The translations under genes were made by a program, and so were the position numbers. Below the pieces are notes generated by a model, which worked only from the letters and a program-made list of their open reading frames with translations, was not told where the DNA came from and did no database searches. Of a stretch of DNA of 22,295 bases, positions 6,548-14,900 are shown piece by piece (the first letter of the stretch is position 1; every line of letters begins with the position of its first letter). Source of the DNA: a virus (lineage: Duplodnaviria; Heunggongvirae; Uroviricota; Caudoviricetes); IMG/VR virus record IMGVR_UViG_2579779049_000014, positions 1-22,295 of that record; one strand, given 5' to 3'.

Positions 6548-7131
6548 GCAACGTAATTTTTACTTATAACGAAGAAGCAGCACTGACCGCAGGGCAAGGT
6601 GGTTTTATTAACGAAACTGGCGCTCACATAATTACCATTACTGAAGCAGAACTCAAGCAATCAGAAAAAGGAGCCAAATTTATTGAGTTTTCTGGAGAAT
6701 CCGACGACGGACGTAAAATCCAGTATCTTAGCGTCTGTGTTCAGAAAAATGACGGCACGGAAAACAAATTTGGCGCAAATGTCGTTCACGCCATGATGGG
6801 GTGTGCCGGGATTGGACAATTAACGCAACATATGGTTTCCGCCAGTAAATTTGTTGCACCTGAATTTCATGGAAAGAAAATCGGGTTAGTGCTCCAGAAA
6901 GTATTAACCACAAACAAAAAGACTGGCGCAGACAGCTACCAGATGGAAATACGCATCCCGTTTATTGCACAAACAGGTCAAACCCTTAAAGAAAAGGCAG
7001 AAGGCAAGCAACCAGAAACTATCGCCAACATGGTTGCCAGCCTCAAAGATAAAGACAATCGCTCTAAAAACGTAAGCCATAATCATGCAGATGATTATGG
7101 TTACAGCCAGAACGATTACCCTCCTTTCTGA
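6544..7131 (+). CDS. Putative ssDNA-binding partner protein (SSB-like C-terminal tail)
   Basis: Start overlaps the upstream stop (ATGA); the acidic/aromatic C-terminus …HADDYGYSQNDYPPF resembles SSB tails that end in PF; sits next to the Sak4-like ATPase. Confidence 0.4.
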   Translation: MSNVIFTYNEEAALTAGQGGFINETGAHIITITEAELKQSEKGAKFIEFSGESDDGRKIQYLSVCVQKNDGTENKFGANVVHAMMGCAGIGQLTQHMVSASKFVAPEFHGKKIGLVLQKVLTTNKKTGADSYQMEIRIPFIAQTGQTLKEKAEGKQPETIANMVASLKDKDNRSKNVSHNHADDYGYSQNDYPPF

Positions 7132-7154
7132 TTACTGAAAATAAGGCTCCCATT

Positions 7155-7451
7155 ATGCCAGCGCCTCTGTATGGTGCGGATGACCCGCGCAACTGCTCCG
7201 GTAGCTCCAAGGCGGAGGTGCTGGAAAATATCAAAAACAATTTCGACGCGTTTCTTGCTCTGACACCAGAAACAAAAGCAGAACGGATGTACCGACGCGA
7301 TATACAACTCGCGCTAAAACAGGAGAAGGACCGAACAAACGAAACAGCAATGAGACCGTTGCGAAAAGCGACAATAGACAAATTCCCTGAATATATCGAC
7401 CCGCGCCTGCGTAATTACCGCTCACGCTATGGCGCTATCAGTAATGACTGA
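7155..7451 (+). CDS. Hypothetical protein
   Basis: 98-aa ORF on the operon strand; weak Shine-Dalgarno. Confidence 0.45.
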
Positions 7452-7461
7452 GGAATTTACC

Positions 7462-7629
7462 ATGAGAGGACTTGCATACAATCCCGGCATTCTTCCGGCA
7501 GAAATGATTATTCGCCAACGCGTAAAGCCAATGCCCTCGAGAGAGGAATTGCTTAAGAGAAAGAGTTTCGGTTCTGTTAATGACAACAAATATCTGAATG
7601 CGATGTTGCGCAAAGGAGGCAACCAGTGA
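7462..7629 (+). CDS. Small protein sharing the C-terminal RKGGNQ junction module
   Basis: ATG at 7462 with GAGGAA upstream; ends …MLRKGGNQ, with its stop overlapping the GTG start of the next gene. Confidence 0.4.
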
Positions 7630-8255
7630 GCAAAATTGACTATCAGGCACTGCGTGAGGCGGCAGTAGCAATTGAAACAGTAGCAACGCCTCAAAAATTG
7701 CTGGCATTTCGTATGAAAGTCACACCTCAGGTTGTGCTGGCGCTACTGGATGAACGAGATGCATTAAACGAACGCATAGCCGAACTGGAGGCTAATTTAG
7801 CGGAGCTGGCCGAAGACCAACAGAAAGCGATTGAGTCAATTAAGCAGGCTGATGCGGCTGTTAAGTTGGCACACGAGAAGTTTTCGGTGCTGGCGGCAGA
7901 GAATGCGGAGCTTAAACAGTCGGAGAAGGAATTTAATAACTTCTGTCGTCAGGAGTACTACGGTTGGGAGGACAACTTCACGGAAACCCCAGCCACCGAC
8001 GCTTTCCTGGCTGAAATTCGTGCGGCGGCTCGCAACGAGGGTATTAACTATACCGCAAGCCGTCTTGCTGCTGCTTTCAATCACGGATTTATCAATAAGT
8101 CTTTGCGTGAAGTTTTCGACGTTACACGCATGATTTTGTCAGCGAAAGAAGAGTTGGCTAATGAAGCGCATCCGATTGATGGCCTGTCTGGTGAATATGC
8201 GGAGAAATCCCTTGAAGAATGGGCGGAACAGATTCGCAAAGGAGGAAACCAGTGA
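7626..8255 (+). CDS. Ea22-like early protein (coiled-coil), paralog 1
   Basis: GTG start at 7626 preceded by AAAGGAGG; [13 protein letters not shown]…, coiled-coil central part, ends …IRKGGNQ; lies in the lambda ea22 position. Confidence 0.55.
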
Positions 8256-8845
8256 GCAAGATTGACTATCAGGTACTGCGTGAAAAGGCAGAAAAAGCAA
8301 CGTGTGGTGAGTGGTCTCTCGAATATGGAGAGAGCCGATTTGATGGTGATGATGCACTAATTCATCGCGAGGCTGCTGGATATATTCCCATTTGCAGAAT
8401 TGAAGGAGCGCATCCTGAAAGCGGTTTCGATGAAGATTTCCAAATGGAACAGCAGGCCAATGCTGAATTCATCGCCGCAGCCAATCCGGCTACCGTCTTG
8501 GCGCTGCTGGATGAGCTGGAAAGAAACCAGCAATACATCAAACGCCGCGACCAGGAGAACGAGGATATTGCGCTAACGGTAGGGAAACTGCGTGTTGAGC
8601 TTGAGGAAGCAAAATCAAAACTCAACGAGCAACGCGAGTATTACGAGGGAGTAATCGCGGATGGAAGTAAGCGCATAGCAGAACTGTCTGCTAGCCACAG
8701 CAAATTGCGCGACACAATGGCTGGCATCCACAACACAATCCGAATGGATGGCGGCTATACGCCACTGGCAGCAATCCTTAACGCTGCTAAACGCGCATAT
8801 GAAGAATCAGCAAGCGCCGCTGGCATCAAGGAGGAGTCTGAGTGA
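8252..8845 (+). CDS. Ea22-like early protein, paralog 2
   Basis: GTG start at 8252 after AAAGGAGG; [13 protein letters not shown]…; the N-terminus and the upstream DNA are near-repeats of paralog 1. Confidence 0.55.
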   Translation: MSKIDYQVLREKAEKATCGEWSLEYGESRFDGDDALIHREAAGYIPICRIEGAHPESGFDEDFQMEQQANAEFIAAANPATVLALLDELERNQQYIKRRDQENEDIALTVGKLRVELEEAKSKLNEQREYYEGVIADGSKRIAELSASHSKLRDTMAGIHNTIRMDGGYTPLAAILNAAKRAYEESASAAGIKEESE

Positions 8846-9336
8846 TGGTCATTTCACCTATAACGCTGAAAGCGGCGCAGGAATTTATCGCACAGCACCA
8901 CCGACACAATAAACCACCAGTGGGGCATAAATTCAGCATTGGTCTGAGAAATAATGCCGGAGAATTGATAGGTGTGGCGACAGCTGGTCGACCTGTTGCA
9001 CGACATTTGGACGATGGATTAACGCTTGAAGTAAATCGCACATGTACCACAGGAGAACGCAACGCTAACAGCGCGCTTTATGGTGCTGTCTGGCGGGCAG
9101 CAAAAGCTATGGGTTATCAACGTTGTATTACGTACACCCAGGCAGATGAATCAGGAGCATCTCTTCGCGCAGCTGGTTTTGTTCGTGTGAAAGAGCTTCC
9201 TCCAAGAAAAAGCTGGGCGGAATCAAGCGTCGCCCTGCGGAGTAAACGCGATCCGGTCGGAAACGGTGGTATTCCTCGTGTGCTCTGGGAAATCAGGAGA
9301 ATGAGTACCGCTGGCATTCGCATCAAAGGAGAGTGA
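8845..9336 (+). CDS. Hypothetical protein, possible GNAT-like acyltransferase fold
   Basis: ATG at 8845 with AAGGAGGAG 7 nt upstream (GTG at 8842 is the alternative). Segments …GVATAGRPVARHLDDG… and …YTQADESGASLRAAGFVRV… resemble GNAT motifs; weak. Confidence 0.4.
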   Translation: MVISPITLKAAQEFIAQHHRHNKPPVGHKFSIGLRNNAGELIGVATAGRPVARHLDDGLTLEVNRTCTTGERNANSALYGAVWRAAKAMGYQRCITYTQADESGASLRAAGFVRVKELPPRKSWAESSVALRSKRDPVGNGGIPRVLWEIRRMSTAGIRIKGE

Positions 9337-9531: not shown

Positions 9532-10143
9532 ATGACCACTATTACCGACAAAGAGCTAATTAAAGAAATTAAAGAACATATCAGCAGTCTGGGGGTGCGG
9601 GACAATATTGAGCGCCGTGCTTATGAAATTGCGTTGACTGCATTGACCGCTGAACCATTCGCCACTATCGACACCGCGGGAATTGAGCTCGTTAAATATG
9701 GTTGTAACACGTTTATTAGTCCCGACAATTCGATGGATCCGGGAAATGTACCGCTATATATCGGCCTGCCACGAATTGAGCCAGCAAGCCAGACTGCCAA
9801 GCTGTCATTCCAGGAATGGTTGTCAGAACAAAAAGAAAAAATAGACGTTGATTGCGGATGTGTGAGCACTGAAACGCTTATGCACTGGATGCGTGTGGCG
9901 TATGAGGCTGGCAACTCTCCGGTAATTCCGGATGGTTGGATAAGCTGTAGTGAGCGAATGCCAGAAATTAGACAAACAGTTATTGGATGGAATGAATATG
10001 CAGTTAGACAATGCGTATATACAAGGAATGAATATGCCAAGACACAGAAAGGCAGAGAGCCAAGGTTTGAAACCTTAACTGGTATATGGCATGGAGTAAC
10101 CCACTGGATGCCGCTACCAGAACCGCCGCAGGAGGTGAACTGA
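9532..10143 (+). CDS. DUF551 domain protein
   Basis: C-terminal …WHGVTHWMPLPEPPQ matches the DUF551 signature common in enterobacterial prophage early regions. Confidence 0.6.
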   Translation: MTTITDKELIKEIKEHISSLGVRDNIERRAYEIALTALTAEPFATIDTAGIELVKYGCNTFISPDNSMDPGNVPLYIGLPRIEPASQTAKLSFQEWLSEQKEKIDVDCGCVSTETLMHWMRVAYEAGNSPVIPDGWISCSERMPEIRQTVIGWNEYAVRQCVYTRNEYAKTQKGREPRFETLTGIWHGVTHWMPLPEPPQEVN

Positions 10144-10538
10144 TGGAAAATGAAGGCGATAATATCATCACACTGGTGCAGCCAAAGCGCGATGAAGAGA
10201 AGCTGCTGAACATTACAGTAACTGGCAGAAAAAACTACACACAACAGAGCTGTAAGCATCGGGCCATTGAGGTTCATGAACAGGATCACGTTATCCTGTG
10301 CTTGCAGTGCGGATGTGTTGTGGACCCTTTTCAGTATGTTCTGCGGTGTGCGAACGATGGTGAGGCTGTGGTGAGAGAGATTAGACAGCTTCATAACAGA
10401 CACGATCAGCTCCGAGAATCTGTTGCCAGCCTCGAGCGTGAAGAAAAGAACACCAAAGCACGGTTGCGGGCAGCAAGAACTGCAATACTGTATGCGGAAA
10501 ATGACCTTAAAAATATTGAGCAGAAGGTGAATCAATGA
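10143..10538 (+). CDS. Hypothetical protein with a Cys/His cluster and C-terminal coiled coil
   Basis: ATG at 10143 overlaps the upstream stop (TGATG); GGAGGTG upstream; C-x4-H … H-x4-CLQCGC may bind zinc. Confidence 0.5.
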   Translation: MENEGDNIITLVQPKRDEEKLLNITVTGRKNYTQQSCKHRAIEVHEQDHVILCLQCGCVVDPFQYVLRCANDGEAVVREIRQLHNRHDQLRESVASLEREEKNTKARLRAARTAILYAENDLKNIEQKVNQ

Positions 10539-10618
10539 CCTGGCCTGAAGCATTCGCAAATGTAGGAACAGTAATGGCGGTGGTGCTGGTTGTGTATTCG
10601 ATTTGTCGCTGGAGATAA
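10535..10618 (+). CDS. Possible 27-aa hydrophobic peptide
   Basis: ATG at 10535 with AAGGTGA upstream; MTWPEAFANVGTVMAVVLVVYSICRWR, one predicted transmembrane helix. Confidence 0.25.
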   Translation: MTWPEAFANVGTVMAVVLVVYSICRWR

Positions 10619-10744
10619 AAACGGTTTGCGGGAAAAGGAGAGTTAAGTAGAATTGCTGCGGGTGCTTGAGGCTATCTGCCTCGGGCATGAACACCAACGG
10701 CAGATAGAGAAAAGCCCCAGTTAACATTACGCGTCCGGCAAGAC

Positions 10745-10815
10745 GCTTAACATTAATCTGAGGCTCAATCCATGCTGAACACATGTAGGTTAGCCTCTTA
10801 CGTGCCGAAAGGCAA
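10745..10815 (-). ncRNA. sok: Predicted Sok-type antisense RNA (boundaries approximate)
   Basis: Inferred from hok/mok family architecture, where the antisense RNA is complementary to the mok translation-initiation region; promoter and terminator were not resolved. Confidence 0.3.
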
Positions 10816-10984
10816 GGAGAAGCAGGCTATGAAGCAGCAAAAGGCGATGTTAATCGCCCTGATCGTCATCTGTTTAACCGTCATAGTGACGGCACTGGTA
10901 ACGAGGAAAGACCTCTGCGAGGTGCGAATCCGAACCGGTCAGACGGAGGTCGCTGTCTTCGTAGACTACGAATCTGAGAAGTAA
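10772..10984 (+). CDS. mok: mok-type coupling reading frame, in-frame N-terminal extension of hok
   Basis: The 70-aa track ORF beginning MLNTCRLASYVPKGKEKQA continues in frame into the Hok sequence. Confidence 0.45.
   Translation: MLNTCRLASYVPKGKEKQAMKQQKAMLIALIVICLTVIVTALVTRKDLCEVRIRTGQTEVAVFVDYESEK
10829..10984 (+). CDS. hok: Hok/Gef family type I toxin (small membrane toxin)
   Basis: MKQQKAMLIALIVICLTVIVTALVTRKDLCEVRIRTGQTEVAVFVDYESEK fits the Hok/Gef signature (hydrophobic helix, TRKxLCE, EVA.F) and is closest to HokC/HokD; AAGGAG upstream. Confidence 0.85.
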   Translation: MKQQKAMLIALIVICLTVIVTALVTRKDLCEVRIRTGQTEVAVFVDYESEK

Positions 10985-11103
10985 GAGACCAGGCGGGGGA
11001 GTAATCTCCCGCCACCTCTGATGTGTCAGGCATCCTCAACGCACCCGCGCTTTACCATACTGAAAATGCTGTTTGAATGTTCATCTCTGAAAGAGGACTA
11101 TGA

Positions 11104-11448
11104 ATGAAAAAGGTATTGATTGCAGCACTTATTTCTGGTGTGTCTTTTGGCGCTTTTGCACAGCAGGGCGGTTTCCAAGGGCCTGAAGCAGAGCGTTCAA
11201 CAGTAGCGCAGGCAAAAGAACTGAAGGATGATGCATGGGTTATCCTTGAAGGGAGCATCGTTAAAAAAGTGGGTGATGAACGTTATGAGTTTCGTGACAA
11301 TAGCGGGACAATTGTCACGGATATCGATGACAGCATATGGGCCGGTCAGAATGTTTCTCCGAAAGACAAAGTAAGAATTGAGGGTGAAATTGATAAAGAC
11401 CTGAGCAGTGTTGAAGTGGATGTAAAGGCACTGAAATTATTAAAGTAA
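11104..11448 (+). CDS. YgiW/YdeI-family (BOF) periplasmic OB-fold protein
   Basis: Signal peptide MKKVLIAALISGVSFGAFA, then the family pattern …ERYEFRDNSGTIVTDIDDSIWAGQNVSPKDKVRIEGEIDKD…; AAGAGG upstream. Confidence 0.7.
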   Translation: MKKVLIAALISGVSFGAFAQQGGFQGPEAERSTVAQAKELKDDAWVILEGSIVKKVGDERYEFRDNSGTIVTDIDDSIWAGQNVSPKDKVRIEGEIDKDLSSVEVDVKALKLLK

Positions 11449-11465
11449 CCGTCCCAGCTTGCTAA

Positions 11466-11492
11466 GCCCGTCTTACTGACGGGTTTTCTGTT
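11466..11492 (+). terminator. Rho-independent terminator
   Basis: CCCGTC-TTACTG-ACGGG followed by TTTTCTGTTTGTT. Confidence 0.65.
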
Positions 11493-11998: not shown

Positions 11999-14900
11999 TT
12001 AATCCACTCCCACTTTTTTGTTGTACTCGCGGTTAAACCGATCCACGGCAATTTTCATATCCCGCTCTACCGATTTCACCATCGCCGACTGTTGCGCCAG
12101 ACTGAGAGTACTGTCGGCGTAAATGGCATCACGCTGTTTACGCAAATCCTTCAGTCTCTTCCGGGTATCCTGCATAAGCCCGTTCATCGACAATTTTCCG
12201 TTGTTCTCGTCAATGAACGCCGTTCTTTCTGCACCGGTCAGACTCTTCAGCTCTGCGTGATACTGCGCAATCTCTGTCATCCGGTCGTACATCTTCTGCT
12301 GGTCTGCATACGGCATCACCTCACCTGAAATTTTCCCCAGGAAGGGCACCTGCTGCTCCGGTATATCAATACCATTCAGCGATTTCACCGCCGCATCCGT
12401 GGTTTTGGAAATGAAGCGCCCTGTCCCTCCGGAGATATAGTCCACCCAGTATTTCAGCGATTCCGGTGTGATATCCACCGCGCCGGGACGGTACTGGCTG
12501 CCACCAGAGAACGCATTCAGCCAGGATGCAAACGCCTTGTACGCTTCTGGCGTTGAACGTCTTCCCAGCTGGCTGTCAGGTTTTGGTGTACCAAACGGCA
12601 TGTTCTCCTGGTAAATCTGCGCCCCCATGAAGTTTTCATTCATGGCAAGGTTCGCAAACGGACGCAGAATGGTCGGCGCTGCATTTTTCAGCAATGCCCC
12701 GGACAGTGTTTCCGACGTCTCACTGCCCACAGGACTGAATGCCCCAAGCACACCACCAACAACATTACCGGCAGCACGTGAAGCGGTCAGGTCGCCCGCT
12801 GCCACCCCTTCGGCTGTGTGACCAAGCAGGAAGAAAACGTTGTACCCGTAAGGCAGAGGAATACTCCAGTACTCTCCGGCCTTGCCCCCGAACACCGATT
12901 TCATAATGACGAGGTTACGCTCTTTCACATGAGACGGCACCTTGTCATACCAGTTAACCCCGTCATCATCCTCCCCCGCAACACTGCGGTTAAGCGAGCC
13001 AAGCAGATAACCCGCTCCCACAGCTGCAAGCGCGATTTTCTGCGGTACATTGAGATTCTTCCAGCGAAGGCGCTCCAGTAACGGCCCGTCGCCATTAAGA
13101 TGTCCGAGCGTTCTCACCAGGTTTGCGGTCCCCTGAATGCTGGCGTTGGCGAACATGTACAGCGAGTTCATCAGCGCTCCCTGCTCACCACGACGGTTAA
13201 AGTTCACCGTCATGTTTTTGGCAAGAGACGCCGCCTGCTGGCGTGACAAACCGGCATCACGGGCGTGTTTATAGGCAGAAAGACGCAGAGCGTTTTCAAC
13301 CGCCCCGTTGGCATCCTCGACAAGGTTAAGGAACGAATTCCATGCACCGATACTCTGGCCTTTCCATCCTCCCTTCGCCAGCGATACAAGGCGATCCATT
13401 TCCTTCTGCTGGCCTTCAAGGTCACCCATGTTAAACCAGCCGGTTTTACCTCCGTCCTCAACAAACTCTTTCCACACCTTCTGCCACTGTGCACCTTTTC
13501 CCGTGAGGGTTTTACCACGCAGACTGGCGTATACGGCTGACATGGCAGAACGGCTGTCTTTCACCACAGCCAGGGCGGATAAGTTATCCAGCCCTTTCAG
13601 TTTACCGTCGCTCCTTCCCTGCTCCGCCTTCAGGTTCATCACCGCCGTCTGCACGTCACGGATGAAGTTACTGACCAGGAATTCCGGGTTATACGACGTG
13701 TTCACCGTTGCCAGGAAGCGGTTAACTTTCCCCAGCGTACGAACAAAGGCATTGCTGGTTTCCGGTCCCATATTCTTCATCGCACGCATCAGGCGCGGAT
13801 CATGGAGTTTGATGTAGTACGTTTTGCCGTTCTTTTTGGTGGTGAAGTACCGGTCTGCCATCATTGCCATCGGTACAGGGCGTTCGACAACTTCGCGAAT
13901 GGTTTCACCAGTTTCCTGGTCCTTGCGCTCTGCAATCGTCCGCATGGTATCCGGTCTGTCATCGGTGAATACCTGCCAGTAATCCTTGTCGGGATTATCC
14001 TGCACCAGTTTCAGGAAGGCGTTACCCACTTCGTTTTTGCGATGGCGGATCAGCGATTCGCTCAGGTCCTGTATCGCCTGAGTGGACGGAGACTGTGCAC
14101 GGGATGCACGCCCCATGGCCTGCCTGCTTTCACGTCCGCCGATGGTGAAGCCCTTACCTGTACGGGGAAGTGACACCACACCGTCAACATCCTGACCTTT
14201 CAGGGGAACGTAGTAACGGTAAGCTTTCTGCCAGGCATCCACAACACCGCTCTCTTCCAGTCCGGCTTCACGGATAAGCTCACGGCGACGGGCCAGCATA
14301 TCGTCAACAATCCCTGCCAGACGGTCATACTGTGCCTGTTTGCCGCTGTTACGCACACGCTGCATGATTTCCGCCGCTTCCGCGTTGGTCATCCCCGAAC
14401 CGCCGTCCGGCATTTTCGGGTTGATTTTCGCGATATGCGCGTTACGTTCCGGCGCGTGACGGGCGTAGAGGTACTCATCCAGATCGGCCTGCGCAATTTT
14501 GTAGTCCGCCAGTAATTTAGCCAGTGGCTGAACGTAGCGCTCCTTCATCACGTTCAGGTCGTTTTCCGCCTTCCCGTGGAAGAGTTCTTCCGCCATATAA
14601 GCGTTGTTACTGTCGTCCACTTTGCCGCCAGTTTTACGGATATTCTCCTGAACAGCTTTCAGCACCTGGAATTTATCCTGCATCTGGCGCACAAAACGCG
14701 ATGCAATTGTCTCTTCCGGTGTCAGACTGCTGGTACGGGAGTAATACGGCCCCTTGCGAATATCTTCAGGATAGAGTATTTTATCCGCAGAGCCGCGATA
14801 AGAATGTTCCCCTTTGGGCAATTGGAGCCCTCTGTGCAGAAGGTTATCGCGGCTTAATTTTTCTCTCCGGTACAACGTTAACCCGGTCATTTCCATACTC

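Follow-up and report, generated by a model that had tools for sequence, protein, structure and literature searches.

The hok-type locus in the stretch of DNA analysed here (22,295 nt, referred to below as the window) is almost certainly an intact copy of a known type I toxin-antitoxin cassette, hokW/mokW/sokW, from lambdoid (Stx) phages of the 933W/Sp5 type. Direct alignment of window positions 10600-11110 with the corresponding locus of phage 933W showed that 510 of the 511 bases are shared, the sole mismatch being G10992, which is an A in 933W. The 933W record (GenBank AF125520), reportedly published by Plunkett et al. in 1999, carries sokW, mokW and hokW annotations at the equivalent positions. 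A 461-nt query from the locus found matches in 4709 of 5426 complete E. coli genomes, with 99.8-100% identity in many O157:H7 strains, and in 44 phage records, mostly of Stx-converting phages. On the + strand, the locus matched Rfam model RF01794 over its entire length (model positions 1-157 of 157), at 113.5 bits, where the gathering score is 59 (E = 1.7e-25). Nothing was found that contradicted the identification. The system itself is not new: besides its annotation in 933W, it is catalogued in Rfam, Pfam and PHROGs, and it was functionally characterised in 2021.

The original prediction, made by a reader that saw only the sequence, had described a complete hok/mok-type type I toxin locus between positions 10620 and 11050, and this description stands, since all parts of the module were found. 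The proposed span fits the unit well, with the hok promoter at 10625-10653 and a transcript from 10660 to about 11046. The in-frame mok extension of the Hok ORF was likewise correct: the hokW start codon at 10829 sits 57 nt inside the ORF at 10772-10984, in the same frame. The 9-bp inverted repeat in the leader and the 3' hairpin, predicted at about 10990-11015, were both located (Table 1). There is little significance in this result beyond the correct annotation of the locus, but it serves as a useful positive control, in which a sequence-only reader recognised a hok/mok locus from an ORF and hairpins.

Promoters, reading frames and the antisense RNA

The features of the locus and of its surroundings are listed in Table 1. 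Both promoters were placed by homology and, in the case of sok, also by a published mutant. Neither was scored in a stringent consensus promoter scan of positions 10450-11150, because each hexamer matches the consensus at only 3-4 of 6 positions. The assigned hok promoter, for which TTGCGG at 10626-10631 is an alternative -35 hexamer, would start transcription at G10660. In the homologous loci, a -10-like hexamer (TAGAAT, TACAAT, TAAGAT or TATAAT) is found 6 nt before the conserved GGG/GGC 5' end, and the RF01794 model also begins at 10660. A sub-consensus promoter of this kind would fit the weak hok promoter described for plasmid R1. In 58 homologous loci, the 5' end and the end of fbi are 358-403 nt apart, compared to about 387 nt in the predicted full-length hokW mRNA. 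A terminator scan of 10450-11150 was negative; on the + strand, the first terminator-like site is located at 11464-11486.

HokW is a 51-aa hydrophobic peptide (MKQQKAMLIALIVICLTVIVTALVTRKDLCEVRIRTGQTEVAVFVDYESEK) that matched all 42 positions of the Pfam profile PF01848 (HOK_GEF) with 79.8 bits (cut-off 22; E = 1.1e-22). It was also assigned to PHROG 251, “MokW-like host killing”, which belongs to the moron category (E = 9.8e-33). In the NCBIfam scan, the Hok models all fell below their cut-offs, including the Hok subfamily model NF007279 at 53.6 bits (cut-off 73), and no hokW- or hokD-specific equivalog was reported. The peptide is identical to 933W HokW at 51 of 51 positions, to K-12 HokD at 47 and to HokC at 40. 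Upstream, the GAGG of the mok Shine-Dalgarno (SD) sequence is separated from the mok ATG by a spacing of 8 nt.

Table 1. Features of the hokW locus and of the surrounding window.
Feature	Position	Strand	Basis
cII-like	421-717	-	
cro-like	824-1069	-	
cI-like repressor	1130-1867	+	
N-like antiterminator	3641-4066	+	
cIII thermoregulator	5414-5472	+	Rfam RF01804
Sak4-like annealing protein	5867-6547	+	
SSB	6544-7131	+	
Abc2 anti-RecBCD	7155-7451	+	
Two Ea22-like ORFs	7626-8845	+	
Mom-like protein	8842-9336	+	Part of profile only
DUF551 protein	9532-10143	+	
150-aa ORF	10086-10538	+	
Putative hok promoter: -35 TTTGCG (10625-10630), 17-nt spacer, -10 TAGAAT (10648-10653)	10625-10653	+	Sequence, homology
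hokW locus	10660-11046	+	
Predicted full-length hokW mRNA, about 387 nt, tac to fbi	10660-11046	+	Rfam model start, MFE, homologous lengths
tac (translational activator element), GGGTGCTTGAGG	10660-10671	+	Pairs with fbi (MFE) and with ucb (Rfam consensus)
Alternative 5' (metastable-type) hairpin, 10662-10672 with 10678-10688	10662-10688	+	Nascent/truncated RNA folds
9-bp inverted repeat, CTATCTGCC (10672-10680) / GGCAGATAG (10699-10707)	10672-10707	+	MFE, Rfam helix 1
SokW antisense RNA, 71 nt	10710-10780 (10780 to 10710)	-	misc_RNA sokW in 933W record, equivalent coordinates
ucb (anti-SD of mok), AAGCCCC	10712-10718	+	mok SD (full-length fold); tac (Rfam consensus)
mok Shine-Dalgarno GAGGC (GAGG at 10760-10763)	10760-10764	+	Sequence
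mokW ORF (70 aa)	10772-10984	+	ORF listing; annotated mokW in 933W
sok promoter: -35 TTGCCT (10815 to 10810), 17-nt spacer, -10 TAACCT (10792 to 10787)	10787-10815	-	Sequence, published mutant
dcb, GCCTC; mok SD partner in open (Sok-target) hairpin 10760-10797	10793-10797	+	Rfam helix, constrained fold
hokW ORF (51 aa), SD AAGGAG 10815-10820	10829-10984	+	Pfam, PHROG, identity
3' hairpin, 9 bp, arms 10992-11000 / 11005-11013, GUAA loop	10992-11013	+	Present in every fold
fbi (fold-back inhibitory element), CCTCAACGCACCC	11034-11046	+	Complementary to tac
YgiW/BOF-family gene	11104-11448	+	
Intrinsic terminator	11464-11486	+	
Convergent 2806-aa gene; Sp5 homologue needed for tail assembly	11999-20419	-	

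The SokW antisense RNA starts at G10780, and its promoter lies within the 5' end of mok. The RNA was predicted to fold with a free energy of -29.9 kcal/mol; in this fold, a single-stranded 5' tail of 14 nt is followed by a long hairpin and then by UUUU. The 5' tail is fully complementary to positions 10767-10780, which include the mok start codon. The assignment of the sok promoter agrees with the primers YO-421/422 of Takada et al. (2021; PMC8621323), which exchange exactly TAGGTTAG (10786-10793) for CCGGCTCG; the resulting “pro-less” mutant was toxic. In R1, a sok-promoter mutation falls in dcb (PMC9841398), and in the window, dcb adjoins the sok -10 hexamer (10787-10792), inside the sok promoter. 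An antisense RNA of roughly 65 nt had been anticipated for the locus. Such an RNA, SokW, was detected on northern blots in Sp5 lysogens (PMC8621323), and its annotated length is 71 nt.

The Rfam family RF01794 is named “sok antitoxin”, yet its match is to the mRNA-sense strand (10660-10834) and stops at the hok AUG. What it models is therefore the leader of hok and not the antisense RNA, and automated annotation from RF01794 would place “sok” on the wrong strand.

Leader elements and predicted folding of the hokW transcript

A long-range folded hok mRNA, as originally proposed, was found in the computed structures. The 389-nt RNA at 10660-11048 had a minimum free energy (MFE) of -162.6 kcal/mol, compared to -120.1 ± 6.0 kcal/mol for dinucleotide shuffles (z = -7.1). 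In this closed MFE structure, the tac-fbi duplex and the pairing between ucb and the mok SD are present together, and the mok AUG is also base-paired (pair probabilities 0.8-1.0). The tac-fbi duplex consists of 12 bp with one bulged C, at pair probabilities of 0.97-1.0 and with a duplex energy of -21.5 kcal/mol, compared to -12.8 kcal/mol in shuffles. Within ucb, the AGCC at 10713-10716 pairs with the mok SD region at 10762-10765 with a probability of about 1.0, while the mok start codon is paired with 11029-11033, at probabilities of 0.81 for 10772-11033 and 0.99 for 10774-11031.

The 9-bp inverted repeat forms the inner stem of the 5' tac-stem domain. In the Rfam consensus it corresponds to helix 1, and the full-length MFE structure also contains it. 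Each of its arms, CTATCTGCC and GGCAGATAG, occurs once in the window. Perfect 9-bp inverted repeats with a loop of 3-40 nt were present in ≈4% of shuffles of the 431-nt region, so that the repeat by itself is weak evidence.

The position of the 3' hairpin is conserved in the R1, hokB, hokC and hokD loci. By analogy with the R1 model, this hairpin is likely to be the stop and stabiliser for 3' exonucleolytic trimming. The single base that distinguishes the window from 933W is found here: G10992 adds one G-C pair at the base of the hairpin, and G is the consensus of the other family members. The same state is seen in the K-12 hokD and hokC loci and in plasmid hokD-like loci. In an otherwise identical locus, the G allele was found in few collection records (E. 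coli F8952 and phages Stx2_EH2086 and Stx2_EH2085).

We also considered the open form of the leader, which was forced by constraining tac to pair with ucb (10712-10718) and the mok SD (10760-10764) to pair with dcb (10793-10797). In the full-length RNA, the open form was 14.6 kcal/mol worse than the closed form. When the RNA ended at 11016, the open form was 2.5 kcal/mol above the MFE, which in this case retained the alternative 5' hairpin and not the tac/ucb stem. The alternative hairpin resembles the co-transcriptional metastable hairpin of R1 (PMC9841398), to which it may correspond. Refolding triggered by 3' trimming would thus be thermodynamically plausible in these models, and fits the R1 model (PMC9841398).

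The mechanism outlined here is taken from the R1 hok/sok model and is consistent with the computed folds. The weak promoter would give rise to a stable hok mRNA of ≈387 nt, in which tac is paired with fbi, ucb masks the mok SD and the mok start is paired, leaving the RNA neither translated nor bound by Sok. Slow trimming from the 3' end back to the hairpin at 10992-11013 would remove fbi, whereupon the leader would refold into the tac/ucb and SDmok/dcb helices. This refolding would expose mok for translation, on which the translation of hok would depend, and would form the Sok-target hairpin. Meanwhile, the abundant and unstable 71-nt SokW, made from the promoter inside the mok start, would pair through its 5' tail with the mok start region, which would prevent translation and target the duplex to RNase III. 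Upon loss of SokW, the 51-aa HokW would enter the inner membrane and damage it. The 3' processing, the refolding and the coupling of mok and hok translation are all inferred by homology.

Genomic context and role of the locus

The hokW locus sits at the distal end of the early-left unit, ≈7 kb downstream of the N-like gene and on the same strand, and is followed only by the YgiW/BOF-family gene and the intrinsic terminator. Its predicted placement at the end of the early operon was thus accurate. The region upstream of hokW is P22-like and includes Sak4, SSB, Abc2, Ea22 and DUF551 genes; at 5867-9336, a Sak4-like annealing protein, SSB, Abc2 anti-RecBCD and a Mom-like protein are encoded in place of Exo/Bet/Gam. 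There is no int, xis or att from the early-left region to hokW, in contrast to 933W/Sp5, which places the integration module outside the window. No single collection record covered more than 61% of the window in whole-window searches, and the window therefore represents a mosaic relative of the 933W/Sp5-type phages. The lambda cIII thermoregulator element (RF01804) was matched over its full length at 88.5 bits (E = 1.1e-20), and the cIII ATG is located at 5427.

The locus had also been described as a prophage moron, a label that applies in part. It is an accessory cassette, and PHROGs places its peptide in the moron category. However, it has no terminator of its own, and no composition signature of foreign DNA was found, the GC content ranging from 0.48 to 0.51 within the locus and from 0.43 to 0.53 on either side. 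It is therefore not a textbook moron, but an accessory cassette that, in the case of Sp5, is expressed in the lysogen. Host DNA is absent from the window, and prophage status cannot be read from it.

Several smaller features were noted around the locus. There is no terminator between the end of fbi (11046) and the YgiW/BOF-family gene, and transcripts reading through from hok or pL may extend into this gene, which is of a stress-tolerance-like type and the product of which appears to have a hydrophobic, signal-peptide-like N-terminus. Just before the hok promoter, at 10535-10618 on the + strand, there is a 27-aa hydrophobic ORF (MTWPEAFANVGTVMAVVLVVYSICRWR), the ATG of which overlaps the stop codon of the 150-aa ORF (ATGA). 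This ORF had no Pfam, NCBIfam, PHROG or PADLOC match and is unannotated in 933W and in RefSeq records; it may encode a small membrane peptide or simply be a chance ORF. Among the late/tail genes, an 83-aa ORF (21726-21977, - strand) showed glycine-zipper and class II bacteriocin-like matches below the Pfam thresholds, and is labelled “bacteriocin” by RefSeq in related prophages.

The Hok and Mok peptides, the sok promoter and the leader of 933W (AF125520) and Sakai Sp5 (ECs_1245) are identical to those in the window. The downstream neighbours also agree, with a ygiW-like gene followed by a gene of about 2800 aa in convergent orientation, which is needed for tail assembly. These phages differ from the window in the A at 10992 and in the upstream backbone.

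The Sp5 copy has been studied experimentally by Takada et al. (2021; PMC8621323). Arabinose-induced HokW stops growth, SokW expressed from its own promoter neutralises it, and promoter mutations bring the toxicity back. Repression by SokW was partly dependent on RNase III and Hfq, neither of which the authors considered to be the major route. Uninduced Sp5 lysogens contain both the hokW and SokW RNAs, and two smaller, unmapped hokW RNAs were also visible on the northern blots (PMC8621323). The original prediction had named a non-toxic Hok ORF, or a missing antisense promoter or transcript, as findings that would speak against it; in the Sp5 copy, HokW is toxic, the SokW transcript is seen, and mutation of the sok -10 frees the toxicity (PMC8621323). 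The toxicity of HokW and its neutralisation by SokW are thus published for the Sp5 copy, and the RNA made from the window would be the same except for base 10992.

Upon addition of mitomycin C, SokW vanishes and HokW-3FLAG builds up in the inner membrane; HokW production is RecA-dependent and starts ≈1 h ahead of that of endolysin (PMC8621323). The accumulation of HokW at induction advances growth arrest and lysis by ≈40 min and increases phage release ≈2-fold (PMC8621323). When the locus was deleted, growth arrest occurred ≈40 min later and the amount of phage released was halved; these effects are modest and were measured in K-12 carrying Sp5, the backbone of which differs from that of the window. 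The Sp5 hokW-sokW deletion was viable, and phage was still made at about half the yield (PMC8621323). Assistance with lysis and phage release at induction is the only role reported from experiments.

The original prediction had suggested that the locus could stabilise the prophage or act in phage exclusion. We consider it unlikely that the locus serves mainly to stabilise the prophage by addiction (post-segregational killing). This is the function originally assigned to the hok/sok family, on plasmid R1, and the window has the same RNA architecture; the 933W record carries a remark on “prophage maintenance”, and both RNAs are constitutive in the lysogen. On the other hand, the deletion had no growth phenotype, and a role at induction was seen instead (PMC8621323). 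In an addiction module, loss of the prophage would leave the stable hok mRNA behind while the unstable SokW is depleted, and the cell would die. Integrated prophages are, however, rarely lost spontaneously unless induced, making the selection less obvious than for a plasmid.

A main role in abortive infection or exclusion, in which the shut-off of host transcription by an invading phage would deplete SokW and free HokW, is quite improbable. Defence genes are common among the accessory genes of prophages, and R1 hok/sok on a high-copy plasmid, as cited in PMC8621323, lowered the plating of T4 by 42% and the size of its plaques by about 85%. This R1 effect is weak, however, and dependent on high copy number. 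Furthermore, a PADLOC defence scan gave no match for the peptide or its neighbours, other than one to LmuB at the level of chance (E = 0.005) in the 150-aa ORF upstream.

Returning to the role at induction reported for Sp5, one might suppose that HokW is triggered by transcriptional interference from the phage early-left operon, a speculative idea to which we assign a low probability. If it were correct, N-modified transcription originating at pL would meet the sok promoter (10815 to 10787) head-on and silence the short-lived SokW, while read-through from pL would add hok-sense RNA, tying the release of HokW to derepression. In integrated 933W/Sp5, attR is located about 3 kb upstream of hokW, between the locus and pL, and such a link would form only after excision and circularisation; the timing of HokW would then vary by backbone. 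In the window, there is no att site between the N-like gene and hokW. This backbone, in which pL is contiguous with hokW, would be convenient for asking what removes SokW at induction.

Comparison with related hok loci

Alignment with the hokC and hokD loci had been proposed as a check of the original prediction. An alignment that included these two loci showed the same order of elements in the window, in the R1-type plasmid locus, in K-12 hokB, hokC and hokD, and in a plasmid hokD-like locus.

For a wider comparison, 79 loci were fetched across the Enterobacterales, of which 58 were distinct and had a recognisable tac. In each of these, the first 13 nt form a duplex with a segment located between 15 and 110 nt beyond the stop codon. 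This duplex was stronger than at least 99% of shuffles in 40 of the 58 loci, with a median z of -3.7. The tac-fbi pairing was kept with compensatory changes across the 58 loci, such as GGGTGCC/GGCACCC vs. GGGCGCC/GGCGCCC, or GGGTGCTTGAGG/CCTCAA-C-GCACCC vs. GGCGCTTGAGGC/GCC-TG-AAGCGCC.

The hok/sok (parB) locus of plasmid R1/IncF shares with the window the promoter, tac, ucb, the Sok target, mok, hok, the 3' hairpin and fbi, and its mRNA has a similar length. The R1 sok promoter (TTGCGC-N17-TATCCT) has the same layout and the same position inside the 5' end of mok. In our own alignment, the two loci are ≈49% identical in nucleotide sequence and their peptides at 20 of 51 positions; Takada et al. 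reported 44% for the R1 comparison (PMC8621323). Relative to hok, the R1 mok occupies the +1 frame, whereas mokW in the window is in frame. The settings also differ: the R1 copy is plasmid-borne and acts in post-segregational killing, while the window copy is phage-borne, with a role at induction reported for Sp5.

Among the K-12 loci, hokC/mokC/sokC (gef) has mokC in frame with hokC, as in the window, but IS186 is inserted 20 bp past the hokC stop codon, where fbi should be, whereas fbi is intact in the window. The K-12 hokD locus (relF, Qin prophage) shares the 3' hairpin and an identical fbi with the window, but has lost the leader, mok and sok, with relBE in their place, whereas the window copy is complete. 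These losses, together with the label “RelF inactive antibacterial toxin” attached to the gene in some phage records, might suggest that the window locus has decayed into a non-functional hok relic, as have several of the E. coli K-12 chromosomal copies, but this is so improbable that we consider it ruled out, since every element is intact and only one stem-strengthening base separates the window locus from a copy shown to be toxic and regulated.

Loci with 90-100% identity to E. coli or plasmid hok copies were also encountered in assemblies labelled Veillonella, Acinetobacter, Xanthomonas and Streptomyces, and likewise in others labelled Ferruginibacter, Oscillibacter, Dysgonomonas and Vagococcus. 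Most of the contigs concerned were short, and the loci most likely represent contamination or mis-binned enterobacterial or plasmid DNA.
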